Positions 2,165-35,779 of a stretch of DNA of 64,000 bases are shown here, in pieces. The notes under the pieces were generated by a model, which saw only the letters and a list, made by a program, of their open reading frames with translations, made no database searches and had not been told where the DNA came from. The position numbers and the translations under genes are program-made. The stretch is from Raillietiella orientalis (Eukaryota). Where the stretch lies: the NCBI GenBank assembly GCA_036172245.1, contig JAYWIR010000012.1, forward strand, positions 868,001-932,000, given 5' to 3'. Within the stretch, counting starts at the first letter, position 1; every line of letters begins with the position of its first letter.

Positions 2165-3828
2165 GTGAAAATCCCGGAGGTTTCCGCGACAAAAGTCGCG
2201 GAAGCCTCAAAAAATCGTGACGGCGAATGGAAGGTTGTGAAGAGGAGGAAAGAAAAATCTCCAAAGAAAGCTTCGCAACCTCCATACCTGAGGTCTTCCA
2301 AAGCAAAAACCTGTCGCGCGAATACGAAAACACGCGCGGCTGGTGCTTCTGCCCAGGAAAAAGCCAGCGCCTTGAACGCGTGCAAGTCTGCCTCTGTGAC
2401 CGCCGACAAGACGATTCCGGTGCGATCAGGCGGAAGCAAACGAACGCCGAGAGCGCGAGCATCAGACTCCGTAAAGGAGTCCGCTACGCCGCTGAACGAC
2501 GCGTTATTCGCGCCGGAGCGGGCGTCCGCAGGGCTGAAGCCCTCAGGCGTGGCACAACTCGCCTCGGAACGGCGGTGGCTCACCCCGGAACCTACAAGTT
2601 GGATTGCCTGCCGCCACATGAACATTAATGCATGGCGGCAGGAATCTTTTTCATCGTGGGCCGCTTCCGAAGGAATTCGCGCGGAAGATCTTCGACGCCT
2701 GCGACTTCTCCTGAGTCATCCCTTGGACGAAGTCATGCAGGACAAGAAGAACTCGGATCGTCTGGCCGCCACACCGCTCGCCACAGCGCTGTCTGCCCTC
2801 AGGGCAAGCAACGACGGTTGCCTACCGGCGGAATGGGAGTTCTCCTTCACAATAGCGGGAGTGACGAAGCTCCTCGGCGGCTGGACGACAAAGGAGCTGG
2901 TGGAAGCCGCCACTCCTCGGAATCGGGCGAAGGGCCTGCTTCGGTGGAGTGAACATTTAAGTGTAACCCCCGAAGTGATAGTGGTCCCCCCCGTTTGTTT
3001 GGACAGCTCCTTGTTCCCCTTAAAGTGGAAACATGATGTGACGCTCTTTTTACACTGGGGATTCCACTGTAATCGGCTGCGAAGCATCGTTCCCGGGGGA
3101 GCTGCTTCGCCAAACTGTTTGAGGTGCGGAGAGATCGAGTCTTTTCCGCACCTCTTGCTGGACTGCGGTGACCTCCGTGAACTGTGACGAAGGCTGATTT
3201 CAGCCATCATGCCGCAGGTAGGCCCTGCCATTGATGTGCTGCGGCGCTTCTTCAGCAGGAATGGACTTTCGGTAGGCGTGATTGTCGCAACCATGTGTTG
3301 CATTCGCGCCATCGTGAAGGCCCGCTACGCCCTGGAGTAGTCAGCGCAGCGAAGGGAGGCTCACCTGCTTGCAGCCGTATCCATGGAGAAGGCTGCAAGG
3401 TGGCCTCATCTTCGTGACGAGGTGAAAGAGGACATCGCCGGCATCCATCGCCGGTTTACAGACTTTTGAGAACGGCGTGATCCGGTGACCACTGCGACCT
3501 GTAGCCCACCCATACCCCATCCCCGTTCGCTCTGCTGAATTCCCGGTGCCATTTCTTTTATCCCGGTGCCTACCAGAGTGATCCCAAAGACTCTTGTCCC
3601 GGCATCCCCATTAATTGTTTCTCTTTTGTTTTTGTTTGTTTTTGTTTCCCGTCCCCACACACCGTTCCCAAGACTGTTATTCTGGCCTGCGTGCCAGCAA
3701 TATTCTCCTGATCCTTGTTCAGTCGTCGGTTGGGAGCCTGGTTCCCAACCTGTTTATTTTATATAATTGTGATTTTTCTTCTTTATATTATATGAAATAA
3801 ACGCCCCTGCGTGACCGGGTGGAAAATC
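2165..3828 (+). mobile_element. Tx1-like element lacking RT: ORF1-tail-like basic region, then ORF2 C-terminus and 3' UTR
   Basis: FPLKWK..LHWGF...CLRCGEIESFPHLLLDC (zf-RVT-like); T-rich UTR; terminal motif AATAAACGCCCCTGCGTGACCGGGTGGAAAATC at 3796-3828. Confidence 0.8.
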
Positions 3829-4390
3829 TCCTGCAGCAGCGCAAGGTCGAAGGATCCGAGCAGGGCGGCCATGTCTCGTCTCCTGCCGGCGTCTGTCATG
3901 CCGTTGACGTTCCAAACGGCGATGCGCAGACGGCGGCGGGAGGAGATTCCCGGCATTACTGCTGGGAAGTTGTCGGTGTGGGGGAAACCGCCTCTTCCGA
4001 GGCGGATGAGATGGCCATCAGAGTTTCGGCCTCCTCAAGCATATGAGGCACCTGTTCGACCTCCACCCCCTCCATCCCCTCCGTGTCCGAGCGTGGGAGT
4101 CTCTTGGTAGACGAGTCCCGCGATTCTCCCACACCCATGGCACCCTCGCTGCCGGAAGCCATCTCTTCCCCTTCGACGGGGGAATGATCTGCCGGGGATT
4201 CTTGGACTTACGTCCAGTCTTCCCCGGAGGATGCCGCGGCGACGGAAGGTGCTTTCCCTACTTTTCGTTCAGACTCCCGAGATCTCGGACCCCTTTTCGG
4301 AAGGCGGACGGCTTATGGCCTTTTTGGTGGCCTTGGAAGGTCGCTGCAGCGAGGCAGCGAGCTCCTCGGCCGCTCGCTCGAAAGTGACGT
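3829..4390 (-). mobile_element. Tx1-like fragment: ORF1 end plus APE start
   Basis: Minus strand reads MPGISSRRRLRIAVWNVNGMTD...FDLALLQE, cut at the LQE codons by the neighbouring element. Confidence 0.75.
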
Positions 4391-5568
4391 CATCGGTCGC
4401 GGGCGCGATGACGGACTCCGCCCCCTCGGTCCCCTCCTTTTTGATTGGTTGGCTGTTGACGCGCGCGCGATTCGGTCGTGTCTGACAAACGCTCCGCTCG
4501 GGAAATCTTTTTTCTCTTTCCAAGTGAATCATTTCTCGGCCGTGGCGAGTTACTCGCTACTGCACGGTTTTCGTACATTTTGTACCGTTGTTGGTGTTGG
4601 TGTTCTTTTTTTCTCTTTTTTCGTTTGAATAATAATATTGAATAAATAAACAAGTGTAATAATAGGAATCCAAAGTGTTTGTGTCTTTGCATCATCGTTG
4701 CTACATAAGGTAAGATCGTTGCAGTTGGAGTTTTCAACTGTACAAATACTTTGCGAATTTTTTTTGTGATCCCTTTTTAGTTGATTTTGACGTTACGAAA
4801 GCGAATCCCTTTTTTTTTTAGCCTGTAAAATTTATGTGAAAATTTGTTTGCATCTTGTAATTTTAAAGTTTGAGGTAATGCTGCCGAGGAACGCGAATTT
4901 TTATGCAATTTATTCTCTTAATTTGCTCTTGGTTTGTTTGTTTGTTTGTCTGTTTTTATAAAAACGATATAAAAGAAAAGAAAAGAAAGTAATGAATGAA
5001 TAATTGAAATAATATTAAAAATAAAATTGGATAAAGGTTGAATCAGCTGTTGCAGTAAGTATTAAGTATCGACCCGATTCAGTCCCAGCTGACTGTGACG
5101 TCATCGATCGACAGCTGAGCGATCTTGAAAGTTTATTGAATGTACTTTTAACGCATATTCCCTTTTTAAGCACATCATTTGTACGCGCTTTGGTGGAAAA
5201 ACTACGGACACTCACCTGAAAAGTTTGAATTAATTGATACGACTATTGATCAAGGAGTTTGTGGGAAATTTGATGGCAGTTTTTACCTGGATTTGAGATC
5301 TTCACTACAGTCTTCAGCCATTTTCTCGTTTTCGTTGTTGTTTTTTTGTTTTCTCCATTTTTTTTTATTTAGGTCTAGTTTTCACATGAAATGGCTCACT
5401 GTTTCTGTGAGGTGTTTGTTTGTTTGCTGCTTTCTTTGCTCCCTCACTTGGTCATTTTCTGGTGATTGTGTCATCTCACAAAGTTCCAAATTTAAGGTCG
5501 TTCCGTGTCCTGATGATTCTCTCCGTTCATATCCAACCTGTTTTTAATGAATATATGCACTTTCGAAA

Positions 5569-8500
5569 ATGACCACCAGTAATGTAAGGAGCATATCTTG
5601 TTTTTTGGATGGAAATAGGGATTTATATTTTCCCTTTGCTCTCCCTAGTCCGTGTCCCTGTCCCGTAGTAGGATGTAAATTTGCCTCCGCTGCAGAAGAT
5701 AAGCATAATAGATGGAGAAACTTAAAACAACATTTGAGCAGAACACATGGAGTGTTTCCATCAGAATGCTTTTATTTTTGTCCAACATGCTATTTCACCG
5801 TTAAAATGTCTTTCGTCCCTACTCCTGCTCACTGCTGCACAGGAATAAAAAAATTCCACACCCCTGCCTGTCCCACTACCACACTTCAGTTATAAATGCA
5901 ACCTTCGATCACAAACATCTCCGTAAAAAATCATAAATTGACCGTGCACGGCAAAAAGTCCAAGATGACGAATTGTTCCGAGCTATTTGAGGGATGCATC
6001 TCGGAGTTTAGTGACCCTTATCATCAACGATTGATGGCAGGTGGTGATGCCTCTCCTCAACTGGTTTCTCAATCTTCCTCTTATGATCAACCTTCACAGT
6101 CAATAAGTGGTGACTGTAAAATCAAAGCTTCCCATGAACTCATCGTAGCAATTAGGATTTTTCAAACCCATAAAGAGGCCTTTGAACCATTACCAAACGA
6201 AAGATCCTTTCTCATTCCTGAAGAAACCTCCTTAGAATTCTCAATGTGTAGTAATCATACAAGCCTTGCTCATACGCCTACTGCAACGAGATCGTACGCA
6301 GATGTTCTAAAAAAAACAGTCCTGTGGTTCGAATTCCACGTGTAACGGAAGAAATTAGATCCCATAATTCTCTCTCTAACTCACGTTTACAGATTCCCAT
6401 TCTGAAAGCACAGTCTATTTCTCATCCTTTATCTCCAAGAACAGTTACTCTCTACACACCTTCACCCTTTGGTAGTCCAATTCTCAAGGATAATCTAGAT
6501 TCTGTAAACCCGTGTGATGATGCCGATCATTCCGAAACTTTGAATTGATCAGCACTTCTACCTTCGCAAAGTCTCTAAAGGAAATCACGTCTTAGCATTT
6601 TCCCATCGGTTCCCATCCAAACATTATCACACATCGCTCTTCTCTCTTCTTCAAAGAGAGTGAATGACAACGAGATTCTCAGTCCCCTCATAGTTCAGTC
6701 ACCTGATTTCAAAATTCGGAGGCTTCCCGTAGTGACGAACCTTTGCCCCCTTTTACACCTTTCTTCTGAGCAAATTTTAACAGCCTCTGAGAATGTTATC
6801 TAAAAACCCACTGGGTATCCTGCTTCGGTAAATATACCCGAATCTTCGAGCTCGAAAGCAACAACGTTTAGTCACTTGTCTGATACTAATTCCAAGGAAA
6901 TTCTTCGTACAAAAATTTCCCCTTCGTTTAAAAAGGAGGTTACAATAGTCAGTCCTCCCCCTCAGCGAAACATTAGGCAATCCACAATGTCGCCGTCAGA
7001 AGGGACTTCTACCTCCATTTCTGGACACTCAGCAATTCAACCAAGTCGACCTGTGACTCCACCACTGAATTCTCTTTCTCTACCACCATTCCATAATAGT
7101 GAAGTAGCCTCAACTTCGAATAATCATTTACTTGTCCGATGCCCTGTGTCTCCCTTACTAAATTGTATCATTGCTACGTGTCCATGGTGTACTCAAACGC
7201 TGGTTGCCAAACGTACCGTTGCGTCTTTGAATAGGCACTTCAGAAGTGCATGCAATCTCCCGTTCTATGAACATTTATTAGTGTGCCGGCGGTGCAATGA
7301 AATCATTCAACTTCCCATCCGGCATCATCCCTGGCTCAAAATGCGCAGTACCCGAGCGTCCAAACTGGTCCAGCTACGACACAAATGTACTGTTGCAAAT
7401 TGTTCCGCTTCTTTCCCCTCTGAAATCAGCCCGAATAACCATTCAAGGTGGCATGAGAGGATCCGAAACAAAAACAAATTGGGAGAGCCTTCGCAGTTGT
7501 TCAAATCTATAAGGACTTCCTCAGATCGATTTGAAAGGTTATCTAATCTTGAAGCGGAAACGGAAGATTCTACTATGGAATGTCAAACAAAAGTCCCTTT
7601 TCGAGAAAGCATCCCGCCCCGTGACCATCGAACCCCCACTATGAGATTGGAATAGCCATTTACTAGGGATAACATTCCTGCAAATCAAAGCTTGCCTATT
7701 GATCAGAATACCTCATCGCCCTCTGCAAATCCGGTAACAGTGCAATTTTCAAGATTTCCTACCTCTTCAAGCCTGTTATCCAACTTCTCCTATACTTTCG
7801 AACACTGGGCAGCATCCACCCCAAACTGCGACTCGTGGCAATGTGTACTGAACTCATTTCATTCAATGATGGTGGCCATGAAAATAAAATTCAAGATTCA
7901 TTCTTCCCTCTCTTCTACTCCCTCAAAAAATTAAAAAGCGTTTTAGCCTGCGTTATCCAAACATTGATTGCAATCCCTGTATAAACGTAACAGGAAACGG
8001 GCAGTTCGAGCGATACTCAATCCAAATCCACTGACATTTGAAGGCTCCAGAGCACTTCTCGGAGAAGTGCTCCGTGAAAAATTTTCTGAGAAGTTTACGG
8101 CAAGTAAAATAGTTGATTATGTTGAAGATGTAACTGCCCATAATGATGTGGACTATATCTTCCCAACAAGTCAACATTGCACTGAATTCATGTATCGATA
8201 GCGCCCCTGGAAGTGACGGAATTGTATACTCCGTACTTCGTCGTGCAGATCCAGACGGTTCCTTTCTTGCTTCTCTATTCTCTGCTCGTTTACACCATCA
8301 CAGAATTCCAGATGATTGGAAATCCTCAAGAACAGTGTTCAACCCAAAATCAGGATCATCGGACTCCCTAAGCACCTTCCAATTCCGACCCATTTCCATT
8401 TCCAATACGATAGGTGAACTTTTTTCAAAAATCCTGGCTCGTCGATTGCCATCGTGGATTATCAGAAATGGCATATTAGGTCCCCACCAAAAAGGTTTCC

Positions 8501-10683
8501 TCCCATTCGACGGTGTGCTCGGACAGAAATTTGTCCTCGCTTCTTCCATCGAGGAATCACAAGTTCATCATAAAGATTTGGCAACTGCATGGATTGACAT
8601 AAAAGATGCGTTCACATCTTTTCCGCATAGCTTAATTCTAAATTCTTTATCGACATTTGGAGCTGGAGACCATTTCTGTTCCATGATAGCCGATCTTTTT
8701 TCGAATTCCTTTACCTTCATAAGGAAGGTCCCACCAATTCCATTCCAATTTGTGCAGGTGTTCGCCAACGATGTCCTCTGAGTGAACTAATTTTCAATAT
8801 CTCTATTGAAACAGTTCTAAGAATGTTACTCGTGGAATGCCCTAATGTTGCTCCCTTTGCATATGACATCGCATTAATGTCGGACTCACTTGACTCCATT
8901 CAAATAGCTGTAAACCTTCTAGCTGACCATATGAAACGAGTAAGGCTGGAAATCAATCCGAAAAACTTCGTTGCTTCTTCACCTTCTTCTTCACCTCTTC
9001 TTCACCTTTATACGTATATGGCACGCAAATTCCTTCTCTTGCCCACCCAGAGACTTATCTTGGTAAACCCATAGGATTCGACCCTCTGTTTTATGATGGT
9101 GCTGTGGAATCATTCATTCGTTCATTCAAAATTTTAACTGACTCCCTTCTCGCACCATGGCAAAAACTGGATGCCATTAAATCTTTCTTCCTCCCTTTCC
9201 TTGTTCATGACCTTCGCCTGTCCAAAAAAGCTTTGAGCTCGTGAGTTAGGCTCGACAAAATCATTTAGGATGTCCTGAAGCAGTCTATCCTTTCCCTCAC
9301 AAAAGGATCATCGAACAAATATCTCTATGGAAAACCAAGAGATGACTGCCTTGTCCCGATGATTCTTATCGAGGAAGCACGCTCAATGACGGTAGATTCC
9401 GCCTTCAAAGTGCTTACTTGCCGATACAGCAGAGTCGTCGACCTTGAAATGATGACGTTGTCAGACACTGTGAAGCAGAAGACCCATATCCCTCCCGACC
9501 TTACCCTCATTATCCGGTTTCTCAATGGGTGTTGTGTGGAACCCCTGAATCGCATGAGTGGTGACTCACGCACATTTTCCTCCGCGGTTAGGGAAGCATC
9601 CAAACATCTACCTATCAAATGGGGTTTTGAGGAGAACTGCATTACCATTTCCGTTCACTCTCCCACTACTGAAAACCCCAAAATTGTGTCTGCTTCACAT
9701 AGGAGGCAAATAGCAAGAAACATTCGCTCTTTTCTAAGAGACAAAAGGTGCAAATCTCTCTTTGCGAAGCCTGATCAGGGAAGAATAGGGGAATGCGTTA
9801 GCCTCCATCCCGCGTCCATGTCCTTCCTATCGAAGACTGATGGTATAAGATTTTCTCATTGGCGATTTATCCACAGAGCACGATTAAATTAGTTAGTGTT
9901 GAACGGAAGTCGAAAAGTGCCGTTTCTGCGGATATGAAAAAGAAACATTAGCGCATGTATTGTGCCACCGTCCCCGCCATTTGAGCTCCTCCATTACCAA
10001 AAGGCACGACTACGTAGCGGATTACATTTTTTCGTTACTGTCTCCAACGTGGCCAATTTCGTCTCATGACAAGAGAATCGAGACAGTAGAATCTTTCCTA
10101 CGTCCCGACATCTTCTTGCGTGGTGGAACTACAGAGATTATCGTAGATATCATTGTTCCCTTTGAGGATCGTCCCATTGCATTCAAAGGAACCAGAGAGA
10201 ATAAGATCACTACAAAATTCCTTACGTAACCAGGGCTTGAACGTGATCAATGACGCTATTGTCTTTGGTGCTCTAGGAAGCTGGGACCCCATTAATGACA
10301 ATCTACTGAAATCCCTAGGAGTAAACAATCATACTCTAAGAGATGTGGCAGCCCATTTATGCTACGCCACCATTTAGTTTTTCAGAGATATTTACTGTCA
10401 CCACGTCTCCACAATGGAAACAGCTCCAAACCTTACTGAAACTTCGATCTCCTCCCACATCCATGATGTCCACGGACCGACTTCTCTAATCCTGCATGAT
10501 GAAAATCCCAATGATTTTAATACCCCACTTGGACAAGGCGTAGCCATCCTTACTTCTCTTTGGGTTCCCTTTTCGTGGATAAACACTTTCCCTTTGACTA
10601 CAACAGTGCCAGTGTTTCTCACTTTCAACAAAATATGCCAGCTAGAACTTAATGACAACGGACTGTTTATGCAAAAAAAAAAA
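5569..10683 (+). mobile_element. Near full-length degraded RLE-type non-LTR retrotransposon (Utopia/NeSL-like)
   Basis: N-terminal C2H2-like fingers; RT motifs SAPGSDGI, FRPISISN, HQKGF, AWIDIKDAF; PWQKLDA; RFIHRARLN; CRFC..ETLAHVLCH; RPDI..IIVDIIVPFE; GALGSWDP; A-run at about 10673-10683; many stops and frameshifts. Confidence 0.9.
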
Positions 10684-10849: not shown

Positions 10850-12413
10850 GGCACCAGCCAATGTGCCGCACTGGTCGATGGGCTGCAAAGCTTTCCTGCC
10901 AACCTGGCTCTTGGCCGTCGTCCTCAGCCTTCTAGGAGTTTTCCGCCGGGGTCTCGGAGCTGGCCTTCGCCTTGGTCATCCAAATTTTTCCAATTCGTTC
11001 CGGACGGACTCCTTGGTCATCCGCCCTTTCGGGCAAAGGGAGCCCCCGAGTTCCTTTGATGGACGTGTGCGCTCCGCGTCGGGACGGCGGTCTTGGCCTC
11101 CTGACTCTGGGGTGGTTAGAAATTCAGCTGCAATGGCGTACCATGGCCATCGCAGCAATGTTTTGGAGCACCCCTTGGTGCGTACTGTCCCGCCTTCCCG
11201 CCGCTGTGTCTCCGGAACAAATGGAGTCGCGTCTTATCTTCTGTGCCTCAGCAAGAAGAAAAGAAGATGAGGTCTTTTCCTCGGACGCATGGTTACCCTG
11301 GCTAAAGAGAACGGCTGGATAGTCTGCTGCCCCCAACTCCACCGCATGTCTGGAAGAAACTGTTGGCACGTGGCGGTAGTAAATTAGAGCCAAGAAACGT
11401 GGAATCGCCTGCGATGCGGCCCCTGTGCCCGCTGCACTCTGCGGAAAATACTGGAGTATCCCTCTAGGAACACGTGGGCAGACACGACCTGCCTAGAACA
11501 GGGCTGCCCTTCCTACGCAGGGCTCTTGTCAGCAGCCGTACGCCGAGGTTGCAAGTCTCCTGGCATATCGCAGGCAGGGAGAAGTTGATGAGCGTTTGAA
11601 CCATAAGACAGCTGGAGGACGCCACGAAGCCGAGCGTCCTTCCGCGAGGGCTGAAGAAATGGGGCGAACTGCTCGGCATCCCGATGGATGACCTGATGTG
11701 CTTCCCAGTATTGAGAGATGCATCCTCCTTTCCTCTCAAGTGGCAGGATTCGGCGCTTCTGTTGTTGCACTGGAGCCTCCTCTGCATCGCGCGACGCCAC
11801 CACTGGACTCTGGGGAGGCTTAAACAGAACTGTGCAGTGTGTAGGGGAAAGGAATCCCTTTCGCACCTGCTAGTAGACTGTGTTGCCCTCCGGTCCTTAT
11901 GGGAACGGTTTGCTGAGACCCTCCGGATGCCGGTTGGCAGCATTCCTAGGGACGTCATGCGCCTCCTCTTCGTGAGGGATGGCCTGCAGATAGCAGCAGC
12001 CTTGGCAGCACTTTGCTGCATCCGCGGGATTGTAGCTGCTTGGAGCGGCTGCGACTCAGGAGGAAGCAACGAAAGGGACGTCATCGAATATGCAGTTCGC
12101 TTCTTGAGAAGAGCCATCCGATGGCCAACCTCAGGAGAATTCGGAAGGACCTTGCCGAGATCCTGTGAAGGATGCGTCCCGCCTCCAGCAGGCCGTGATC
12201 CCTTCCCTTCCCTTCCAGAGTGTTTTTTGTATCCGTTTTTATTTTATTTTTGTTTTTGTTCTCTCCCTATCCCACCCCGCTGCCGAGGAGAGTCCCGTCA
12301 ATCTGCGTATCAACTACCCGGCAGGTCCACTGTCTGATTGGTCGTACTGGGGCTTTGTACCAGGTTGTACCAGTTGTAATTTTTAAATGAACGCTTGACC
12401 AGGTGACAACATC
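10850..12413 (+). mobile_element. Tx1-like 3' fragment
   Basis: APRRDGGLGL, FPLKWQDSALLLLHW, CAVC..ESLSHLLVDC; terminal motif variant AATGAACGCTTGACCAGGTGACAACATC. Confidence 0.85.
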
Positions 12414-14150
12414 GAAACGGACGCTCCGCACCGCCCCCGTCACCCTGCCTCGGACCAGGAATGCTACTCCGCAAGTATTTTGGGAACCTTGCCACCAATG
12501 GAACGTCTTGCCTTCGCGACCTTCGAGATCGGCCACTTGCTGTTCGGAGATGTCGTGAATCCCCTGTAGCAGGACAGATCGAAGTCGCGCAAGACGTTAG
12601 CTACCAAACGCCTCTTCTCGGTGTCCTGCAGCCGGTTGACGTTCCAACAGGCCACGCGGACGCGTCGAGAAGATCCGAGCCCGCGCATCACTACTCCGGA
12701 CATGGCGTCGGATTTCTCGCCCGTCCGACGATGCATCAGCCGGGAGCGCGTCAGATTGGGGAGAGGAACCTCACCCGTTCTCCGCCGCGCCGCACTCGGC
12801 TTGCTCTGTGGAGTCGAGGAGCATTGCCTCGGGCTTCGAGGAGCTTCGGGAACCGTTTCCGGCATCAGGCTCGCGCCTGGAAACCTTTGGCTTGCGCCCA
12901 GCTTCAGGTTGCCCCGGGGCTTCGCACACTTTCGCGCTGCCGTCGTACTCCACCCTGGAGTCGGAATGCCACGCGCAAGACAGGTGTTTGGCCTGCTTTT
13001 TTCCTTGCTGGCAGCTCGATGCTCTTCCAGCGTTCGCAGAGGGGTGCGATAGGAGCTGTTGCGTGTTTCAATACCTCTGCGTTAGCTGCTCCGCTCTCGC
13101 TGAGGGCGGAAGCGATGGGACACGCAGCCGCGACTTTAGCTGCTTTTTGACCGCACCTACCTTGAGGATGGGGAAATGGGAAGGATCCCTTTTGTTTTTC
13201 TCCTTCCTCTGTTTTCCCTTCACAAGGGTTCATCCAGCATTGACATCCTTGGTTGGGCCGGCGCTGAACACGAGATCCTTTAAGATCCTTGGCCCTCTCT
13301 CAAGAGGCTCCTTCTTGGCGTTCGCGGATAGGAGCGGTTTCGCCCCAGTTGCCTTTTGCTCCTTCTTACCGAATGATGCAGGCAAAGTGGCGGAATTGTC
13401 CGGGGTCACGCGATGCTTTGTAGCCCTTTTCGCGGCTTAGCTCGCCGTGGACGGATTGCCTTTAGCGTACGAAGGGGCGCGCGATCCCTTATTGGCGGCT
13501 CTGTTTGACTTACCGCGCGTACCATCGTCATTTCGCTCCGGAGCGGGAACGGACGGGAACGGTTGCGCAGCCTTTGTCCGGATGTTTTCGGCAGGTTGCA
13601 TCGCGCGGGGCTTGCTGTTAGCAGCGTGAAGTGGCCGAGCATCTTGCAGTAGCAGCAACTGCAGGTGGTGCACTTCTACGGACGGTGGCCCTTCTTGCCG
13701 CAGTTGTTGCATACCGGTTTCTGTCCGGCAAACCTTAAAAACACGACCGCATCCAGCTTTCTGTTCTCCATGGTGACGCACGCCGTGGCCAGTCCTCGAT
13801 GAAGGCAGGGAACCTTGTTTACCAGGTTCGCGCCCCTCCAGAACGCCTCCGGTGTGGGTGTAACTGTTGAGGCACACGCTGCACGCATCCGAGGTTCTAC
13901 CTTACATCACCTCCATAAGTAAGATACTGTTATTGTGGTGGGGATGCGAGAGCACAGTTCTTGGTTCAGGTCTCCATCTGATGGAGAATTTATGCTCACA
14001 GGATAAAGCAAAGAAAAGATTTGCCTCGAATCTCTCATTCTTGATGCCTTTTCGGGAGACAGGTGTTATATTCAAAAGCTTCAAAGGTCATGCTAATCCT
14101 TGCGTGTGGAGCACGACAATCCAAGAAACAAAAAGATTTCTTCTCTAAAG
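12414..14150 (-). mobile_element. Tx1-like 5' fragment (ORF1 plus APE start)
   Basis: FLRFAGQKPVCNNCGKKGH knuckle; RVACWNVNRL..FDL; GVAFLV. Confidence 0.8.
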
Positions 14151-15139: not shown

Positions 15140-17500
15140 TTATTAACTGTTATTTAGTTCACTGGAGATTAACTGCAGGACTGCCCTGCTCTCATGATGT
15201 AGTCATTGGGGTCGCTTGCATCGTCGGGTGAATGCCCCAGTCCGTGTGTCCAGTAGATGTCCCTGCTGGCCCTTATGCAGCAGGATACGGCCAGTTTCCT
15301 CAGTTTTTTGGTGCTCTTTTCCTTGGTTGCCAATAATCTTAGCGAAACATCATTTTGGGGATCCCATGATCCTATTGTCCCCACGATGAGGCATGCATGA
15401 TAGCTGTGCGACCGGTCTGGTTCATCACGTGGATCGAGTTTTCGTATTTTTCTTCTTTTTTCTGATGTGCTTCAGAGAGGTTTTCCTTGCCCTGAGATAG
15501 GCAGTTAACGTATACGATGATTGACATTTCGTATTTTTTGAAAATTAAATTCCGTTTTAGCAGAAAGTCCACTCCAGGAAGCATTTGGCCCGCTGATATG
15601 AGCTTGCATCCTCCTACCTTCGTGGCAACTCCTTGCAGTCTCAGCACGATTGCATTATGTCTGGCGATGTACATGGGGAGATGCATCACGCAATGGTTTA
15701 ATATGTGTGGCAGTGTTTCATCCCGGCAGTTACATCTTCGGCACAGACAATCGGCTGGCAGTCTTCTTTCTGCTCCTCTAATTGGTGGGCATTGGATGGA
15801 TGTATTGGATGAAGGCATGGATGGAGTAGAGACTTCTATCTGCAAGAGGGACACCTGTGAGAATCGGGTGATTCGTTCTTCTCCATAGCGCGAGCCGTTT
15901 CGTGTGAAGTGGTCCACGTCCAGACCACGGAAGCAGAAGAGACAGATCAAAAAAAAGTTTCTCTCGCCCCTCATGCGAAAGAAGCAAGCAAGTTCCGTGC
16001 AGGATTTTTCCAGCAAGTCTCACATTTTCTGATGGCTGCCTCGTGCGCGATACCCTCTCTATGAAAAAAATAGAGGTAGTAAAATGCTAATTGCAGTCAT
16101 TTGGTGACTTCACATTTTGAGCTTTGAAATTTGAAGAGCGAGTTAGGTGAGTAGCCAATAAACGACGAGACAAAGCGAGCGCATGAAGCAACGAATAAAT
16201 GGCAATTCGGACCATGTGACGGTCCTCTTTATGATTTTTGATGAAATACCTCTTCCGCTTGAAGAGAATGAGAAGTTCCTATTAAATGAACATGGATGCA
16301 CAACCAGAGCACAGTTCTGGATGTGATTTGTGCACAATTTTCGTGGTTCAGTGCTCCCTGAATGCGAAGAGGAGTCCAAGTATTATTGGTGAGGGACCCA
16401 AGAGGAAGTTTCAGATAGCAATAAACGCGCCTCCGCAAGCGTCTTCGGTTACGATGTTGCCCGTGCACAAAGCATATTCGCCCAAGATGCAGTAGGGATG
16501 CCAATAAGCCTAAGTAACTTAACGACGATGCGACGGTTGCCTTAGACTCTGGAGCGCTGTTCAAGTGATATGCTTTCTCGCTCCCGCATTCACGTGATAA
16601 CTTCTGGAAGCTCTGCACTGCGTGCGGACTGCTGCGAGCATGGATGGCAATCTCAACTAGTTTGTTATGCGATCTCAAAACCTTCATTTTTAGGATCGAG
16701 CAAAGTGCATCTTCGAAGAAGAATCAGAGCAGTATCTCTTTGAGGGTGGCAACCCCATAGGAGTCTTGGTATCTCGGGTAGCTGTGGCAACTGTGTAGGT
16801 TGGTGCGTTTGAGGAACACGAGAGCACTGTCTTCTCACGTTACAAAGCTGCGGTTGCACAGCGCACCAGGTCCCCAGTTCAAGATGCGCGTGAAGCACGA
16901 CGAGGAAAACCAAGGTGTCGTTCATAGGAAAGGCAGTGAAAGCCAGTGCTCGTAGGGATTTTAAGAATCCTGCCCAACAGTGCAGGATTCTCATGTGATC
17001 ATTCGGATTCACATTCTTCTTCATCCAGGCTGCCTTCCACCTGCTATGGAACTTTTAGATCTTGACATTCCTAAAGAGAAACACCCTCCGGGCTAGTTGA
17101 TAGCAGTGTTTGCTACTTATACTCAGTGTTGAAGATGAAAACGGAAGTAACAAACATGCAGTAGGCTGCACATTCCGAGGGAAATGAACGATATGTGCGT
17201 GTCACTCCGCAACAGCTCGGTCGCACGCGACAGCAAGTGCTTTCTCCCAGTCGCTGCCACGCTCATCGGTAGGCATCGCTGCTGTCACGGGAAAGTCACA
17301 GGAAGCTTGCACGCGCGCCTGAAGAACACGTGTGCTCCTTTGATGTTCTCTTCACCCGTTGATTGCAGCCGTGGCACTGGCTGCATGAGGAACATTGAAA
17401 TTCCAGGAGGGCAGCCTGCATCTTGGAATCCATAGCTGTATGTTCTCACAGAAAATCTTGTCTGCTGCCGGCGGCTTGCAGGAAGTTGTGATGAGAGCGT
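15140..17500 (-). mobile_element. Degraded RLE-type (Utopia/NeSL-like) element, 3' part
   Basis: CRRCNCRDETLPHILNHC..RHNAIV; GTIGSWDPQND; SRDIYWTH; upstream limit approximate. Confidence 0.75.
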
Positions 17501-18736: not shown

Positions 18737-19283
18737 GGATTTTCATCGGGGTTCGCTGGTGCCGGTGCGTTTATTTGTTAAAAATATTCATTACAAAGGT
18801 TGTAGGGCCATTGGCCCTATAACGTTATGATTTATGAAGCTTGCTGAGAATTCGGTGCGCGGACCGGCGACGGTGTCCTGGACGTCAGGGGGAAAGGAGA
18901 AAACAAAAGAAACAAGAATAAAAATATAATTGAAATGAATTCCCGGCGGTCGGAGCAATGAGTTACAGCCTGCCAGGGACCGTCCTTTGCATCCTCTGGA
19001 GGGTGCCAGTGAGTTTCTGCGGCACGTTTCCAACGCCTGTGGCACCACCTCGTCGCTCTTTGCAAAAAGCGTAGGGCCAAGCGTAGGGCAAGCTCTTGGC
19101 ATGGTCTCCTCCCCTGGAGCCGCTCTAGGGCGCCACAGCGAAGGGGTGATAGGGATGCGGCCGGTGGCAACGCATCAGCGCGTAGAGGCGTTCCCTGCTT
19201 CTCTAGGATTGCCACGTGACATACGGAAGGTCTTTTCTGAGGAAGGTTTCCGCAAGGATCGCAGGGCAATGCAGCTCACGATC
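18737..19283 (-). mobile_element. Tx1-like 3' end fragment
   Basis: Degraded ORF2 C-terminus, T-rich UTR, terminal motif AATAAACGCACCGG...CCCCGATGAAAATCC. Confidence 0.7.
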
Positions 19284-19520
19284 ATTTCCACCTGGTCACC
19301 CCCGGGAGCGTTAATTGAATGAAAATGAATAAACTAGTCGGCTCCCAGCCGAAAGCAAAAGTTCAAAGGGTGGACTCACCGGCACGCAGGTCGGCACATC
19401 TCAAAATAGGGCACAGAAGAAAGAGAACAATAAATAAATGGAAGGTGTTCACCGATTTCGTCCGTTCCTGCTTTTGAGAAGCATCTATCTGCTGGTCCGC
19501 AGTCCGCCCACCCAGAGCCC
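19284..19520 (-). mobile_element. Tx1-like 3' end fragment
   Basis: Terminal motif AATTAACGCTCCCGGGGGTGACCAGGTGGAAAT preceded by T-rich UTR. Confidence 0.6.
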
Positions 19521-19622
19521 TCTACGTTGAGGCAGTCTTACAAAGGAGTTTCCATTTAAAGACGCATGGGGCCACGGCGAGGGAAGTTCTTTCCGCCCAC
19601 GTACGTTTGGTAGGATGCAAAT

Positions 19623-20000
19623 GGATTATCATCCGGGTGCGTTAGGGCGTTTATTCCATATAAAACCAAACATTTATAATCTCTGTGGCTTGACCATGGT
19701 CCAATCACTTGCTCCACGAACAGACCTGCCGCTTTACCAGTCACAGGCTGGTGTGATCCACTACGGCAGCAGAGGGAAGGGAGCAAACAAAAAAGAAAAA
19801 GAAAAAGAAGTAAACTTTGGGGGGGGGAGGGGGAGGGAAGGGACCACGTTCTGCTGGGGACAATTTTTTACATCATTTGGAGGGTGCCGGAAAATCTTGC
19901 AGGATGCTGTTTCCCAGGTGGGGCCATCTTATCGCCATCATCATGAAACTGGCGGCGAAGTGGATATGGCAGCCCTGTCGCTCGCTCTTCCTCTTGCATA
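19623..20000 (-). mobile_element. Tx1-like 3' end fragment
   Basis: Terminal motif AATAAACGCCCTAACGCACCCGGATGATAATCC; C-rich then T-rich UTR as in other copies. Confidence 0.7.
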
Positions 20001-26007: not shown

Positions 26008-27760
26008 GTGACACTTGGGCTCGCCTCCTGCATCCGAATCCTCGTGGGCTCTTACAACGTCAATGGGCTTTGTGACGACGGCAGAACATGCAATTTTGAA
26101 CTGGCGCTTCTGCAGGATATCCACATGATCTCCGCAGAGGATGCCCAGGAGATCGATAGGATCGCTGGGGGGCGGCGGCTGCGGCGTTACGGTTTTCGCA
26201 ACACCTTCAGGGTCGCGTTTTTTTCGAAGCCAACCATCGAGGATGCCGTGAGGGGCGTGCGCCTTGACGGAGACGGTCGAGTCGGCCAGCTGATTGTCAG
26301 GTAAATCGACTCGATCGACCGCGTCGTGACCAACTTGTACGCTCCCAGTAGGAAATGCAAGTTCGCAAGTAGAACTCCGTTCTTCAGTGAGCTGAAGTCC
26401 TAGTGGTTCAAGTGTGCAAAGAGCGCACTAGATAGATGGGAGTTTCAACTTCTGCCTGTTGTCAGGTGCAAAGAAGGACGTCTCTGCTGCCCTGGCTGTC
26501 GCGTCGTATCTTCTGTGCCATGGCCGGAAGATCAAAAGATGTGGCCTTCCCCTGAGACGCATGGCTACCCTGGCTAAGGAGAACGGCTGGATGGTATGCA
26601 GCCCGCCAACTCCTCCGCATGGCTGGACGAATCTGTTGGAACGTGGGCAAAGTTAAATGCCCAGGGAGCAGACAACTGCAACTGCCTGCGATTCTGCACC
26701 CGCGCACGCTGCACCCTGCGGACTATTCTGGATTGTCCCGCATGGAGCACGTTGTCGGAGACCACCCCAATGACCACGGCGATGCCCTACCTGAGGAGGG
26801 CGCTCGGCAGCAGCCGGACGCCGAGGTGGAAAGTCTCCGGCCGTATCGCAGGCAGGGAGAAGCAGATGAGCGGCTGGACCGTGAGCGAACTGGCTGACGC
26901 GACGACCCCAAGCGTTCTCCCGCGCGGTATACGGAGATGGGGCGAGCTGCTGGGCATCCCGCTGGATGACCCAAAGTGGCCCCCGTTATTTAGAGACGCA
27001 TCCATCCTCCCCCTCAAGTGGCAGGAAGCGGCGCTGCTGTTGTTGCACTGGGGTCTTCCCTGCAACGCTCACTGCCAACACTGGACGTTGGGGAACGTGG
27101 GACAGCACTGTGCAGTGTGCGGGGAGAAGGAATCCCTCCCCCACCTGTTAGTGGACTGCGATGCCCTCCGGCCCTTGTGGGAACGTTATGCTACGACCCT
27201 CCCTATGCCGGTCAGCAGTACCCCCAGAGACGTTCTGAGACTCCTCTTCGTGCGAAACGCCCTGCCACCAGCCTCAACCCTGGCAGCGCTCTGCTGCCTC
27301 CGAGAGATTGTGGCTGCGTGGAGTTCAGCCAACAGAGGAAGCAGCGATATGGACCCCATCGTACACGCGGGTCGCTACCTGCAAATCGCGATCGGCTGGT
27401 CCCATCTGGGAGCTATGACGAGAAACCTCGAGGGCATCCTGGAAAGGATGGTCTCTTCCTCCAGCGGGCTGTGATCCCTTCCCGGCCCTCCAAATAGTTT
27501 CTTTTTGGGTTGTTTTGAGTTCTGGATGTCCTCAGGATGACGAATGAGGACTTTGGCAATGGTAAGGGAATGAGGGCTGATTTGTTTCATTTATTTTTCT
27601 TTTTGTTTTACCCCTATCCCCTCCGCTGCCGAGGATAGTCAAGCCGATCTGAGAGCCGGCTTACTGACAGGTCCCATGAACTATTGACCATAGCGCGGCC
27701 TAGTACCGCAAATGTAAAGTGTTTATTAATAAACGACCCGGCGTGACCTGGTGAGAACTC
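26008..27760 (+). mobile_element. Tx1-like element: APE start followed directly by ORF2 C-terminus (RT missing)
   Basis: GSYNVNGL..LALLQDIH..NLYAP, then LPLKWQEAALLLLHWGLPCN..CAVCGEKESLPHLLVDC; terminal motif at 27728-27760. Confidence 0.85.
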
Positions 27761-28060: not shown

Positions 28061-28627
28061 GTTGCAGGGGAGAGGCTCCAATCCTGCTGTTGCATGCAAC
28101 ACCATGATCGCGGACTCCTGTCACTTACTGGGAGGATAGCGTTGTTGGCTGCTGGGGGCCACTTCACCTCTTTCCCTCCTGTGGCAGCTCTCTCCAGAGT
28201 AGCAGTTCGTTGGGTGGGCCTCTCTGGCCAACGATGACCTTTTCAAAGCCTTTGAAGGGACTATGCTTGGCCCAGAGTGCGTGGACGGTACCGTACATAT
28301 TGAGCTCTGTCTGAACGCCGTCTTTCACCAATCGGACCGTTATGCCTGTTAAGTGGACGAGCTAAGAGCGGACCACCGTTACAGGGAGGAGCTTGCGGCC
28401 CCCATTGTAATGGGGTTTCTAACATTTGCTGAGATAGACTCGTGCTTTTGCAGGTCACTTCCACGAGCTGTCATCCACTTCCAATGCAATGCCCCTAAAG
28501 ATCCTCTTTTCGTACTCTGAGCCGCGCAGCTCCTTCGCAAAGGAGTGAGAGGTCCCCGGAAAATAGAGCTTGCCTAGGTTGCATAGGAGAGTGAGGTAAT
28601 ATACTGTCCACTAGATAGGTGGCGTAT

Positions 28628-29508
28628 AGATGACAGCTGCGAACCGGCGAGATGGGAGGTCGCCTGCACCATCTCAGGAACAACACGACCTATTGGCGGC
28701 TGGAGGACTTGCGAGCTGGCAGACGCCGCCACGCCTCGCCACATCCCGAAGGGACTACTTCGGTGGAGTGAACATTTGAGTGTGCCCCCCGAAGAACTTG
28801 TGGTCCCTCCCTCCTGTTTGAACACTTCGGTGTTCCCCCTTTCGTGGAAGCAGGACGTCATCATGCTGGTGCATTGGGGTTTTCACTTCAACCAGCGGAC
28901 GAACCGTGTTTCCGGGGGAGTTGTCTCCCCAAGCTGTAAGCGGTGCGGGGAAGTGGAAACGCTCCCGCACCTGCTCCTGGACTGCGGTGCCCTCCTAGGA
29001 CTTTGGCGGAGGCTGGCCTCAGCTCTCCTGCACCAGGGGGACACCGCGAGAGACTTTATGCGCCGCTTCTTCACGCCAGGCAGCCTGTCTTTCGGTGCTG
29101 TCGTTGCAACCGTGTGTTGCACGCGTGCCATCGACAAGGCCCACCGAGAGTTGGAGAAGCTGGCCATCCTTCGTCAGCCCACCGGACTAGCCAGCGCAAA
29201 CATGTCGTCGGCTGCCGAGTGGGACCACCTACCAGAGAGCGTGAGGAGAGAGATCGCCGGCATCCATCGCCGGTTCTGAAAGGAAGGAACGGCCGAACCA
29301 AAGACCCCTGTCCCCTGCCCTCCATATTTTTCTTTTTATTTTTTTATAGTAGTGTATTTGTGGTCCCCTCCCTCCCTTTCCGCACTTTCGGCATACCGAC
29401 CTGCGTGTCGGGGATCCCACCCCCTTCGTCTCTTGTTTTTCCCTTTGTCCAGGAACTCTGTTCCCGGATAGTTTTTAACAAACGCCCCGGCGCACCCGGG
29501 TGATAACC
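28628..29508 (+). mobile_element. 5'-truncated Tx1-like element inserted antisense into U2, with 15 bp TSD
   Basis: AGATAGGTGGCGTAT at 28613-28627 and 29509-29523; intact ORF2 C-terminus (CKRCGEVETLPHLLLDC); terminal motif at 29477-29508. Confidence 0.9.
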
Positions 29509-29548
29509 AGATAGGTGGCGTATCAGATATTAAGCTGATAAGAACAGA

Positions 29549-30362: not shown

Positions 30363-30799
30363 CTACACTTTGATCTTAGACAAAAGGCCAAGGAGAGGAG
30401 AGTGGGGTCTCTGAGGGTGATCTCTCTGAACATACCGCAATCCCGTCATTCCCTTTGCTGAGAGAACACTCACTTTTGCAACGTCCAAGGCAGGAGTCTC
30501 GCGACATTCATCCTCCGTTTCGGTTCGACGCTGATCCTCTTTGTTTTCCTCTCAGTCCAGATCCCTCCCATTTGAGCATGGTTTCAAGTGACTGAGCAAA
30601 TTTGTGATTCAGCACAGGCTCTCACTCCAACCATCCCCAGCTTTTCGTTCTTTTCGGATGAAAGGGCATCAAAATTTTGAGCCAAAGGTCTCTTGAGAAC
30701 TGTCCTGGCAACGTGTGATGTCTTTTTTCTCTTATTTTTTAAATTTTAGAAAAGGCCAGTAGTGACCTCATGCCGAGATCGCCACAATTGACCTAAGAT

Positions 30800-31260
30800 G
30801 ATTATCACCTGGTTGTGCGGGGACATTTCTTACATAAGGTGATGAAAATACATTGGTGTGATGGAACCCTTGGTTCTACCACGTGCGATGAACATGCCGA
30901 AGAGCGATGCGCAGACCTCGAGGTGCGCTTCGGCAGCGTGGGAGAAGGGAAAACAAAAACAAAATAAAATAAACGCATAAAACAGGAGAGGGGAAAGTTT
31001 TGCAAGGAAAGGTTCACAGTGCGTTTCCAGGCGTCCTCTGCATTCTGTTCAGAATGCTGGCAAATTCCGTCCTTGTTCCACCCAGGTGGGCCATCTCGAG
31101 GCGGTTTTCAGGAAAATCCGCATCCAGTGGATGGCGTCCCTGTCATTCTGGCCTCTTCTTCTGGGTCGCCATGATCCTGAGAATACAGCTGAGAACTGCG
31201 AGGGACGCGGCTGGAGGCAGTGTGGCACGCACGAAGAGGCGTCTAAAAATGGAAATCCTT
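30800..31260 (-). mobile_element. Tx1-like 3' end fragment
   Basis: Terminal motif AAATGTCCCCGCACAACCAGGTGATAATC, T-rich UTR, degraded C-terminus. Confidence 0.65.
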
Positions 31261-31899: not shown

Positions 31900-33200
31900 A
31901 AGCCCTCTTCTTTCAGTTTTCCTCATGCTTCAGAGCTCACAGGAAACCAGAATTCCCACAAATCAAAAGGAATTTTGCACTCTTGCTTGCCTAAGACAAT
32001 GTTGGAGTTTTTTAAGAGCAGTCTTTGGCACAGGAAGTGCCTCTGTGCAGTAGTCATCCCAAACCGAATCCGATTGAAAGACTAACATTGGTTAAAATGT
32101 CTTCCAACCATGTGAGGGTTGCATCAGGAAAGCATGGCAATTCTCAAAAGGATGCAGAGCTTTTCGGATGCAGAGCTTTTCTGATGCAGGCTAAACTCCG
32201 TCCAGCAGAGCTAAACGCCCAGATCTCCGATGGTGATCCAAAATGGCCGCATCTGCATCAAGTGAAAGCGATGCACGGTGGTGGAATTCCATGAAGAATT
32301 TTTGCATCTATCCATCTGTGGAATTCAGTCCTGCTGGCGATCGAGGACCTCTTCCAGACCATTTCTTCGTTGGAAGAAACGAGCCATCGTAAATGAGCAA
32401 AACGACCTTCAAGTGCATCAACGTGCATACCAAAGTCTTCACGCATTGCAAGGGGCACCATGCAACACACCACGCTGCAAACCTATCAGACAGACGGAAA
32501 CATGATGACTCTTATCTTTGAACCCAGAAGATCAACTGCCTCATGTCCTCTTATCAAAAGGCTCCTTTTTCACTCGAGTGCGATTCAGAAATGCTTTATG
32601 AGCACAATCCTGAAAAACACATTACTGTCCACAATGACCGCATAGAGTGCAGCACGGTATATGGAATGATAAGAATCTCCACCCCCAAAGTTCGATATTT
32701 GCACTAGATCGAGCTTTTGGTCCATCGTCACTAGCTGTTCTGCCTGAAAGAAGCAATGCAGTTTTCTTCGACAAAAGACCGGAACGCGCATGAGCAGCAT
32801 CAGGAAAGCTCGCAGAAATTCATCGTCCACCCTGCGGTTTTTCAATTTGCAAACCCGACTTTCGAGTCCACAGCAAAGAGGAAGAAACAATGGAGAACTC
32901 CTGCTGCTGCAATAACCGGGAGCTGCGCCCCAGATGGCGTCATCGATCGGCACTGAAATTGAAATCCGTTTGCTGGCTACGACGAAAGCACCGCATTTCA
33001 AATATGACAGAAAGACTTGGTGGCACTGCCCCAGGATGCTGGCGTTGGTATCTTGACCGTACAGAAGATCCGACTGCAGGGGCAGTTACTACTTTCGACA
33101 CTCTGTGCCAGGATATGGACTTGTCAATGATGTTCTCCAGCACGTCACATCCTCCAGGAATGCGCTAGAAGCGCAAGATGTCTTTCGTTGCTAAAGCGTT
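31900..33200 (-). mobile_element. Highly decayed LINE RT remnant
   Basis: LYAVIVDSNVFF (like LY..FVD..KAFD), downstream CPL-like and DADAAI (YADD-like) remnants in the expected order. Confidence 0.35.
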
Positions 33201-33479
33201 GCCGACACAGGGTGTGAGGATTCGGCTATCCCCTGGGGCAACTGCCCTCATTGTTGGAATCCCTGCCTTCAATCTCCTGCCACTCCCAAAACTAGAACAC
33301 CTGGAGGCAGGAGACTCTGGAGTCCTGGATTGCGAATCTGGAACTGCGCTCAGAGGAAGTTCGTTCCACTGAGGAATCTTCTGTGCAGACCGCTAGAAAA
33401 AAACCTGCAGACTGGACGCAGGGACCCCGGATGGCCGTTTAGCCCCTTGCTGCTGCACTGTCTTCCCTCAAGACAAATG

Positions 33480-33760: not shown

Positions 33761-34199
33761 GGAGACCATCCTCAGCGCTTTACGTGGTTTTCTTTGTGCA
33801 GAAGAACCCCTGGATCTTCGTCCTCACCGCTAAGTGGACGGCCTGGCTGCAAGAGTCAGTGTTTGCATGGGGAAAAATCAATGGCGCGGACAAGGCAGAG
33901 TACATCTGCCTACGGAACAACAGATACGCTCTCCAGCCGCTGAAGAAGATCCTGCGGAACACCAGGAATCTGCTGTGGGTCTCCTTCACCCTCCTTGCCT
34001 TAGTGCTGCCTTCCCTAAGGGGAGCAATGGACAGCCAGCTGCTGGAGAGGTGGGAAGTGATCTGAGTGATAGGGAGCAAGAAACATCTGGATACACGTAC
34101 AGCTCGGGAACTGGAAGACTCCGTGACCCCGAGTGTCCAACCAAAAGGTCTGCTGCGCTGGGAAGGGCAGCTACAAATTACTTCGGAGGAGACACACTG

Positions 34200-34926
34200 A
34201 CACCAGCGTGAAACCAGCTTCTTCTAAAGTGACAGGAGCCTACGCCGACCCTGTTGTTGCACTGGGACCTCCCGTGCAGCAGCAGGGAGTGCCGATACTA
34301 TTGAACTCGGGGGAGTTTTTAAGTCCGATTTGCGGCAGGTGCGGCGAAAGACAGTCCCTCCCGCACCTGCTCATGGAGTGTGTTGCCCTCCACCCCACCC
34401 CATATGGGAACGCTTCGCTGTGTCTCTCCTCCGGATAGCGGATCCCCTGGAGCAACCTGAAGACGTTTTGAAGCGCCTATTCTCGCACGACGTCCTCACG
34501 CCGGCCGCATCCCTAGAGCACTTAGCTACCTGCATGGAGCAGCAAAGCCAAAGGAGGCCAGAACAATATGGATGCCATCTTCTTTGCCGTTCACTTCATG
34601 TGGATGGAGTCAAGATGGCTCCATCTGAGAGCCTCATAACAGGAACTTGTCAGCATCCTTGTAAGGATGCAGAGGACACCCTCCATCACAAATGATCCCT
34701 TTTCTGAGTCCCCACCCTAATTTTTTGTATTTTTTCTTGTCTGTTTTTCTTTTTGTTTCTTTCCCCTTCCTCTGTGCTGCCATAGTAAACCCCTCCGGCC
34801 AGCTCACCGGTTTTCGGCAGGTTCTTTCTGTACATTTCGTAACGTGGCAGGATCACGCATCTTGCCACTGACGTCTAAGTTTTATTTTTAATAAATAAAC
34901 GTCCCATCGTGACCTAGTGTCAATCC
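34200..34926 (+). mobile_element. Tx1-like 3' fragment
   Basis: SPICGRCGERQSLPHLLMEC; terminal motif AATAAACGTCCCATCGTGACCTAGTGTCAATCC. Confidence 0.75.
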
Positions 34927-35779
34927 TCGACACTCTATTATCCGTAGACTTCATGGAGTGCCGCTTCGGACTTCATGGAGCCTTGTTCGCAGCAATGGAA
35001 GTTCACCAGCATGGCAGCCGCCTCGATAAGATTAACCTGTCTGTAAGATTTACCTTACCTGTCCGATGAAGTCTTCCGGGAGATCGCCATCACCCACAGC
35101 TGCTTTTGAAAGAAAAGAAGCGATTGAACAAAAGAACCTTGTCTCCACCCTCACCCCTTTTTTTACTTTCTTTATCGTCCCTCGTTTCCGAACTTCAGCA
35201 GAAAGGAATGCAAAGGAAGTTCCTTTGAAGCTGACCACAAAAAAACTTCGTTTGCCAAATTTTCGTACTTAGGGGACGCTATTCCCCTCTGATCTGTAGT
35301 TCTTTTTCTAAATAAACACCCCTTTGTGACCAGGTGCAAAACTAAAGCACCTCGTTTACTTCAGTGGGAGGCATAGAGGCATTATTGAAGTTGAAAGAAT
35401 AGTGGATGCTCGAAATTCGTTGGACAGATGAGCACGCCTATGTGACAAGTTCCAAGAACTTAAGAAGGATCGAAAAAGTGGGTGGCCGCACATTATGACA
35501 TGGAACATTTTAGCCATATTTTCGCACCCTCCTGCGACCGAATCCAACACAAATGAAAGGCATCCCCCTGCATTTGAAAGCTCCTTCAGTGAATGACACT
35601 TCAGTTGTATTTTCTCATCACTAAAGCGTGCTACGTGCAAAGCGCAGACGTGCTTCGATCCGCTCTGCAGCAAAGGCAAGAATCCATGCATCAGGACTTT
35701 CAAGGAGGCTGCAGACGGAGAAAGCCATGGAAAATGGAGGAAGAAAAAGCTTAAACAAGCAATGAGGCTCTGTTCATCC

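Follow-up and report, generated by a model that had tools for sequence, protein, structure and literature searches.

How do copies of a retrotransposon family end when no poly(A) tail follows them? The question is raised by a window of 64,000 nucleotides (nt) of Raillietiella orientalis DNA (contig JAYWIR010000012.1 of assembly GCA_036172245.1, positions 868,001 to 932,000), the first 36 kb of which form a nest of fragments of long interspersed nuclear elements (LINEs). One of the families in this nest, referred to here as family A, closes its copies with a box of about 32 nt that has a poly(A)-signal hexamer at its head and no A tail behind it. Insertions of this family stop at the last base of the box, without an A tail or a terminal microsatellite, and the box has been preserved, whereas the other parts of the 3' untranslated region (UTR) have drifted to chance similarity. 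On the basis of sequence comparison, the box is probably a conserved 3'-terminal cis element, or tail, of an old LINE family with several subfamilies and with the so-called stringent type of 3'-end recognition.

An initial annotation of the window had listed ten occurrences of the motif. All ten sites carry it, two of them in degenerate form (12386 and 18738–18775). A sequence-only covariance model built from these ten copies was run over the window. The model recovers all of its building copies together with an eleventh box at 55409–55441 on the minus strand (E 2e-4), which was absent from the first list and lies after the minus-strand C-terminal copy 56647–55620; the next match has an E value of 0.21. 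The 12-nt head of the motif alone, with up to two mismatches, gives 20 matches where 12.7 are expected, which is barely above chance and consequently weak evidence. The 32-nt pattern with up to three mismatches gives four matches, compared with none in each of 100 shuffles. The model search of the window found no stand-alone motif, that is, no box outside the context of the family. The motif pattern had no match in metagenome contigs and none in genome contigs, the box copies matched no Rfam family at E values up to 5, and the literature, searched by topic and not by sequence, yielded no paper describing this box. The motif family may already be catalogued in Repbase or Dfam, which lay outside the search.

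The contrast between the box and its surroundings is pronounced. Among the ten listed copies (45 pairs), mean pairwise identity inside the box is 0.68, compared with 0.465 for a shuffled partner. In the flanks it is 0.43–0.50, equal to the shuffled baselines (four 40-nt bins upstream and two 33-nt bins downstream, again 45 pairs), in keeping with the earlier observation that the UTRs had diverged. Similarity between copies ceases at the last base of the motif. In the consensus of the copies, the 25 nt on the 3' side of the hexamer are as strongly conserved as the hexamer itself. A G-to-A change reported for the copy at 35311 is present, at position 35318 rather than 35317.

Conservation up to a given base is complemented by direct marks of insertion. 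Copy 28628–29508 is flanked by a target-site duplication (TSD) of 15 identical bases, the 3' repeat of which begins at the base after the box, leaving no base between the two. Three further ends, at 3828, 12413 and 27760, are fixed independently, because minus-strand pieces of the same family are interrupted there. Within 0–2 nt, the end at 3828 abuts an interrupted minus-strand fragment of the apurinic/apyrimidinic endonuclease (APE), the end at 12413 abuts another such fragment that ends at 12411, and the end at 27760 abuts an inverted family fragment starting at 27759. The duplication at the next base and the stop in similarity at the end of the box uphold the view of the initial annotation that the motif is the true end of the element. 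A second candidate duplication (10 bp, at 33095 and 34927) was rejected as a chance match; the minus-strand copy near 56.7 kb is homologous on both sides of its 5' boundary, without a break.

The same data bear on the idea that the motif is a pre-existing genomic target, or a piece of some other repeat, beside which the element inserts. Such a target would fit the clustering of the copies, the three plus-strand ends that abut the family's own sequence, and the location of one copy within a sequence resembling U2 small nuclear RNA (snRNA). However, the box is not part of the TSD and does not occur before its 5' copy. The downstream flanks show an identity of 0.45, the same as shuffled sequence, and all 11 above-noise matches of the model stand in a 3'-UTR-like context downstream of family sequence, nine of them with homology to the end of the open reading frame (ORF). 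Together with the lack of a stand-alone motif in the window, these observations already contradict a pre-existing target, which has almost no chance of being the correct explanation.

No A run follows the box in any of the 11 copies, in agreement with the initial annotation, in which the family ends in the motif instead of poly(A); in ten copies the first 15 nt contain one to four A residues. The missing tails are not due to general decay, because tails are retained in a second LINE family of the window, family B. Its plus-strand copy closes with 11 A residues (10673–10683), about 500 nt before the first family-A homology (11196), and its minus-strand copy has an A-rich end at about 29550. A tails therefore do survive in this part of the genome.

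These facts are needed to judge whether the box could be a polyadenylation region only, made up of a signal, a spacer and a cleavage site, in a relaxed, L1-style LINE whose tails were very short or have been lost. The canonical hexamer, the T-rich element upstream of it and the right distance from the end agree with this interpretation, and the layout of the UTR (pyrimidine tract, T-rich stretch, hexamer) resembles that of vertebrate L1 UTRs in the accessible part of PMC5381506. Yet an A-rich remnant is present in none of the 11 copies, no base separates the box from the TSD in copy 28628–29508, and family B, in the same window, retains its A run. Moreover, a spacer would not need the conservation seen in the 25 nt after the hexamer. 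A purely polyadenylation-related box is thus regarded as unlikely.

The initial annotation had also proposed that a stem-loop inside the box, in which a C-rich arm pairs with a GGTG arm, defines the site of priming or processing. The corresponding 5-bp helix was evaluated in ten copies, giving 50 cells, against 500 column shuffles. It can form in 78% of the cells, and this value drops to 26–42% when the 3' arm is slid by one to three columns; this slide control is biased, however, because the helix was derived from the consensus. In addition, one G-U pair of the helix becomes A-U in the copy at 35311. On the other hand, 388 of the 500 shuffles pair as well as the real columns, and 346 of the 500 reach the covariation score. 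Both sides of a pair are changed in only one cell, the innermost pair is broken in six of the ten copies, and RNAalifold predicts no consensus pair for the ten boxes. Because absent covariation was the refutation rule that the initial annotation had set for itself, the structure-defined part of its proposal fails, and control of priming or processing by an in-box stem-loop is quite improbable.

Conservation as primary sequence and not as structure would also suit another end-specific function of the box, such as host-factor binding or de novo initiation from a tRNA-like or CCA-type end. Three of ten copies do read CCA across the junction. The remaining seven do not, Rfam offers no match, and nothing else points in this direction, so that such a function is considered very unlikely.

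A different hairpin is statistically enriched outside the box, in the 68 nt that precede it. The letters of its stem vary by copy, it ends 6–45 nt before the box, and it cannot be aligned column by column. Comparison of its best energy with dinucleotide shuffles gives a Fisher p of 6.5e-5, with p <= 0.04 in 5 of 11 copies, and the same test at four other offsets, used as a control, gives p values of 0.25–0.27. Pairing between the hexamer region and the upstream T-rich stretch was also considered and rejected (Fisher p 0.99).

The identity of family A has to be established from its protein-coding remains. A C-terminal domain of about 300 amino acids (aa) is common to the copies and lies upstream of the boxes. 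Recognisable homology to the ORF end precedes 9 of the 11 boxes, five of these being C-terminal domains; the other four matches lie at 31250–31017 (E 3e-11), 19959–19909 (E 0.002), 55780–55688 (E 0.013) and 19034–18966 (E 0.21). A tenth match, at 35020–35106, is within chance (E 0.88), and the eleventh copy was assigned by eye alone, on its UTR. The copies are 33–60% identical in protein and, where alignable, 65–74% identical in DNA. The aligned C-terminal domains contain a CX2CX7HX4C (CCHC) motif, and their match to zf-RVT is weak (E 1.4e-3). A profile of five copies, compared with 1.84 billion representative proteins, produced 14 matches, three of which are full-length proteins with APE, RVT_1 and zf-RVT domains; the look-alikes from the Atlas search carry zf-RVT as well. 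The closest protein relative, P0003, comprises 87 aa and is 57% identical to the ORF end. A search for longer homologues of the C-terminal ORF found none, a profile search of the PDB gave no match, and neither did an alignment-based search of viral contigs.

At the other end of the element, three of the four APE fragments (Table 1) align mutually and with P0007 (E 1e-5 to 6e-5), a protein whose Pfam domains are Exo_endo_phos, RVT_1 and zf-RVT. The layout of family A thus consists of ORF1, which carries a CCHC knuckle, and of an APE endonuclease at the N-terminus and a CX2CX7HX4C or zf-RVT region at the C-terminus of ORF2. No reverse transcriptase (RT) of family A was found in the window with RVT_1 or tblastn, the copies being 3', 5' or internally deleted fragments; this is an absence from the window, not from the family. 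The copies differ in length, share one fixed 3' end and include one with a 15-bp TSD, which corresponds to the 5' truncation and target-site duplication of elements without long terminal repeats. Of the features of the L1 group, the C-terminal cysteine-histidine motif is present and the poly(A) tail is seen in none of the 11 copies. A single common target sequence, frequent in the Tx1 clade, is not apparent, and the flanks of ten copies are at chance similarity. Family A would be described as an APE-type LINE with an L1-like layout, the Tx1 lineage named by the initial annotation being a tentative label.

A possible mode of action of the box can be outlined as follows. In the consensus, the hexamer stands 25–26 nt before the end of the element, with a T-rich run ahead of it, and 25–26 nt is the usual distance between a poly(A) signal and its cleavage site. 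Guided by the U-rich stretch and the AAUAAA with which the box opens, cleavage of the transcript would occur about 25 nt further on, where the element has its last base. Because the T-rich run and the hexamer have the standard geometry of cleavage and polyadenylation, the transcript probably ends at this base. The remaining 25 nt of the box probably mark the RNA for the element's own RT, with recognition probably helped by the variable-stem hairpin located 6–45 nt upstream. Target-primed reverse transcription by this enzyme would then start precisely where the box ends, leaving any poly(A) uncopied. Such a mode would amount to stringent recognition, as in L2/CR1, R2 and SART1-type LINEs.

Textbooks use the L1 clade to illustrate poly(A)-dependent priming, and a more far-reaching version of the above scheme can be formulated on this background. 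It states that an L1-like LINE uses the normal AAUAAA-directed cleavage and polyadenylation of the cell and that its RT then passes over the poly(A), cDNA synthesis beginning at the last templated base with the help of the box and the hairpin. Precise initiation of the R2 or SART1 kind would thereby occur in a clade of poly(A)-dependent priming, with the signal and the start site fused within 32 nt. This version is tentative and, on balance, somewhat doubtful.

Several points weigh against stringent recognition as the function of the box. Only one TSD is solid, the second candidate being a product of chance. All copies are old, the closest pair being 74% identical in DNA, so that young copies with tails may well exist elsewhere. 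The enrichment of the upstream hairpin reaches a p value of only about 0.05 when random 70-nt pieces of the window serve as the reference, three of the 11 copies (12386, 27728 and 55441) are without it (p 0.60–0.90), and where present it lies anywhere between 6 and 45 nt from the box. The window shows no short interspersed nuclear element, or other short partner, with the same tail. Finally, 3'-end formation, and not binding of the RT, could be the sole reason why the box is conserved.

Comparison with known systems places the proposed stringent recognition by family A in context. The initial annotation had assumed that L1 and Tx1 elements usually end in poly(A). This background is incomplete, as the L1 clade is known to include LINEs whose 3' ends are conserved, lack poly(A) or form a hairpin (PMC3472496). 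L1 families without a 3' repeat account for 5 of 15 green-algal and 9 of 233 flowering-plant families (PMC3472496). In a monocot lineage of this clade (LINE1-1_ZM), conservation of a 45-nt end is combined with a hairpin whose stem varies, and the divergence of its 3'-end segment is 0.144, compared with 0.570 for the rest of the element (PMC3472496). Family A shares with these LINEs the L1-like protein layout, a short 3' segment far more conserved than the rest (0.68 identity against chance level), and a candidate variable-stem hairpin beside conserved flanking bases; the lack of a terminal repeat also recurs in some of the families. The monocot lineage still ends in poly(A), whereas family A has neither a tail nor a repeat. 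Further differences from the L1-clade LINEs of PMC3472496 are that the family-A box begins with the poly(A) hexamer and that its hairpin lies upstream at a variable distance.

Stringent tails are described as the rule for most LINEs in the accessible portion of PMC4176376, and the 3' end of family A, conserved among diverged subfamilies (0.68 against 0.43–0.50), corresponds to this type. According to the same portion, the RT of L2/CR1-type LINEs, such as eel UnaL2 and zebrafish ZfL2, recognises its own 3' tail. These elements have a stem-loop near the end, for which family A offers a candidate, and, like family A, no poly(A) (excerpts of PMC4176376 and of papers cited in PMC3472496). They differ in their short tandem-repeat ends, which family A lacks, and in belonging to other clades with other types of ORF1. 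Vertebrate L1 3' UTRs, as presented in the available sections of PMC5381506, likewise contain a pyrimidine tract, T-rich stretches and a canonical AATAAA near the end. In all species studied there, the hexamer is followed by poly(A), whereas in family A only a conserved 25-nt box comes after it.

The Tx1 clade requires separate consideration, as a U2 snRNA-like sequence is involved. The sole RT in the window (8134–9071, in a stretch of 43% guanine-cytosine (GC) content) belongs to family B, whose post-RT region at 9791–10404 on the plus strand is homologous to 30372–29722 on the minus strand. A 5'-truncated family-B copy, 30360–29550 (minus strand), splits the U2 snRNA-like sequence at model position 37/38. 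Positions 1–37 of the U2 model match at 30399–30363 (minus strand; 17.6 bits, E 0.066 in a 121-nt search), and positions 38–84 match at 29549–29503 (minus strand; 31.9 bits, below the gathering score of 46). In the part of PMC4640811 that is available, nucleotide 39 is given as the first U2 position on the downstream side of Utopia insertions, and Keno uses the same site. Because family B splits U2 at position 37/38, the Keno/Utopia-like behaviour is that of family B and not of the family that carries the box; the site in question (U2 nt 38|39) is occupied by family B. Family A entered the same U2-like sequence elsewhere, in antisense and not at the Keno site, and cmscan found no U2 continuation beyond this insertion. 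Judged by the accessible parts of PMC4494074 and PMC4640811, family A is similar to the Tx1 clade (Tx1L, Keno) in being an APE-type LINE with a C-terminal zinc finger and in having one copy within U2-like sequence. It differs in that its insertions share no target and in the orientation and position of that copy.

Table 1. Positions of the terminal boxes, upstream hairpins, target-site duplication and coding remains of family A in the window.
Feature	Position	Strand	Basis or remark
Terminal box, best match to the model	3796–3828	+	36.1 bits
Terminal box, degenerate, about 5 nt of the C-rich part missing	12386–12413	+	18.7 bits
Terminal box	27728–27760	+	Covariance-model match
Terminal box of the TSD-bearing copy 28628–29508	29477–29508	+	Covariance-model match
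Terminal box	34894–34925	+	Covariance-model match
Terminal box	35311–35342	+	Covariance-model match
Terminal box with 6-nt insertion, degenerate	18738–18775	-	Covariance-model match
Terminal box	19280–19316	-	Covariance-model match
Terminal box	19624–19655	-	Covariance-model match
Terminal box	30800–30831	-	Covariance-model match
Eleventh terminal box, degenerate, absent from the first list	55409–55441	-	E 2e-4, not in the model
TSD, 5' copy, 15 bp	28613–28627		Identity to 29509–29523
TSD, 3' copy, 15 bp, inside the U2 snRNA-like match	29509–29523		Starts at the next base after the box
Upstream hairpin, 10-bp stem, -16.6 kcal/mol, 45 nt before the box	3728–3750	+	p 0.007
Upstream hairpin, 6 nt before the box	29446–29470	+	p 0.15
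Upstream hairpin, 25 nt before the box	34844–34868	+	p 0.007
Upstream hairpin	35271–35288	+	p 0.04
Upstream hairpin	18799–18823	-	p 0.007
Upstream hairpin	30858–30882	-	p 0.04
C-terminal ORF2 domain of the copy ending at 3828	2600–3460	+	Alignment
C-terminal ORF2 domain of the copy ending at 12413	11196–12334	+	Alignment
C-terminal ORF2 domain of the copy ending at 27760	26468–27471	+	CX2CX7HX4C, weak zf-RVT
C-terminal ORF2 domain of the TSD-bearing copy	28629–29276	+	Alignment
ORF1 with zf-CCHC knuckle	1025–234	-	Domain match
APE N-terminus	26014–26394	+	Aligns with the APE part of P0007
APE N-terminus	3977–3825	-	Aligns with the APE part of P0007
APE N-terminus	12596–12411	-	Aligns with the APE part of P0007
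APE N-terminus	159–1	-	Sequence comparison

Some arrangements of family-A pieces are of interest in their own right. The plus-strand copy 26014–27760 contains APE residues of about 1–128 (26014–26394). Its C-terminal domain begins at 26468, no more than about 80 nt further on, and the RT is missing. It looks like an internally deleted derivative and is perhaps non-autonomous. Two minus-strand 5' parts, consisting of ORF1 and the start of the APE (3825–3977 and 12411–12730), stop exactly where plus-strand copies end (3828 and 12413); ORF1-like sequence lies at 13073–13744 (minus strand). The two parts stop at different points of the APE, and their missing 3' halves were not found beyond the inserted copies. 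These stops could be the result of nested insertion with a large target deletion or of some other rearrangement. Short 3' fragments of family A also follow one another in the same orientation, three at 18738–19655 (minus strand) and two at 34894–35342 (plus strand), which could reflect chance in a dense cluster or template jumping of the RT between RNAs. Upstream of the minus-strand ORF1 at 1025–234, the region 1460–1900 contains internal tandem-like repeats (1760–1839 and 1658–1737 are 80% identical) that may be 5' UTR monomers of the family. For the family-A copy 61357–62007, a terminal box was not found. A near-perfect 79-nt palindrome at 62014–62092 (92% over 80 aligned positions) occupies the expected continuation of this copy; it matches plant microRNA precursor models with 55.5 bits, the gathering score being 100.

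The remainder of the window contains two split host genes, encoding a fasciclin-domain protein and an acyltransferase. The acyltransferase gene (50574–51604, minus strand) lies inside a low-GC stretch (35–42%) at 48000–52000, and the adjoining fasciclin region has a GC content of about 60%, the composition of the window being strongly heterogeneous. Within the repeat cluster, the U4 snRNA model has a full-length match at 16357–16474 (minus strand; 43.7 bits, gathering score 46, E 1.5e-6), which could be a gene or a retro-pseudogene. At gathering score, Rfam has no match in the whole window. Other repeats include an inverted repeat between 35785–36066 and 63691–63410 (62% protein identity, without a Pfam match), an inverted DNA repeat between 58813–59013 and 60017–59819 (84% identical), and a 45-nt palindrome at 40995–41039 (98%).

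As for the meaning of these results, family A looks like an ordinary specific-tail, or stringent-type, LINE rather than a new mechanism, and a transposon specialist would find a family of this kind expected. The novelty is modest, because L1-clade families that have conserved ends and no poly(A) have been published before. Family A would be a clear addition to the few L1-like LINEs in which a particular 3' end, and not poly(A), is recognised. Such an addition bears on the question put forward in PMC3472496, namely whether stringent recognition is ancestral in the L1 group. The combination of a canonical poly(A) signal and a precise end that lacks a tail raises the question of whether the RT starts inside a polyadenylated RNA. 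In annotation work, the box can serve to mark family-A 3' ends precisely within a nested repeat cluster.

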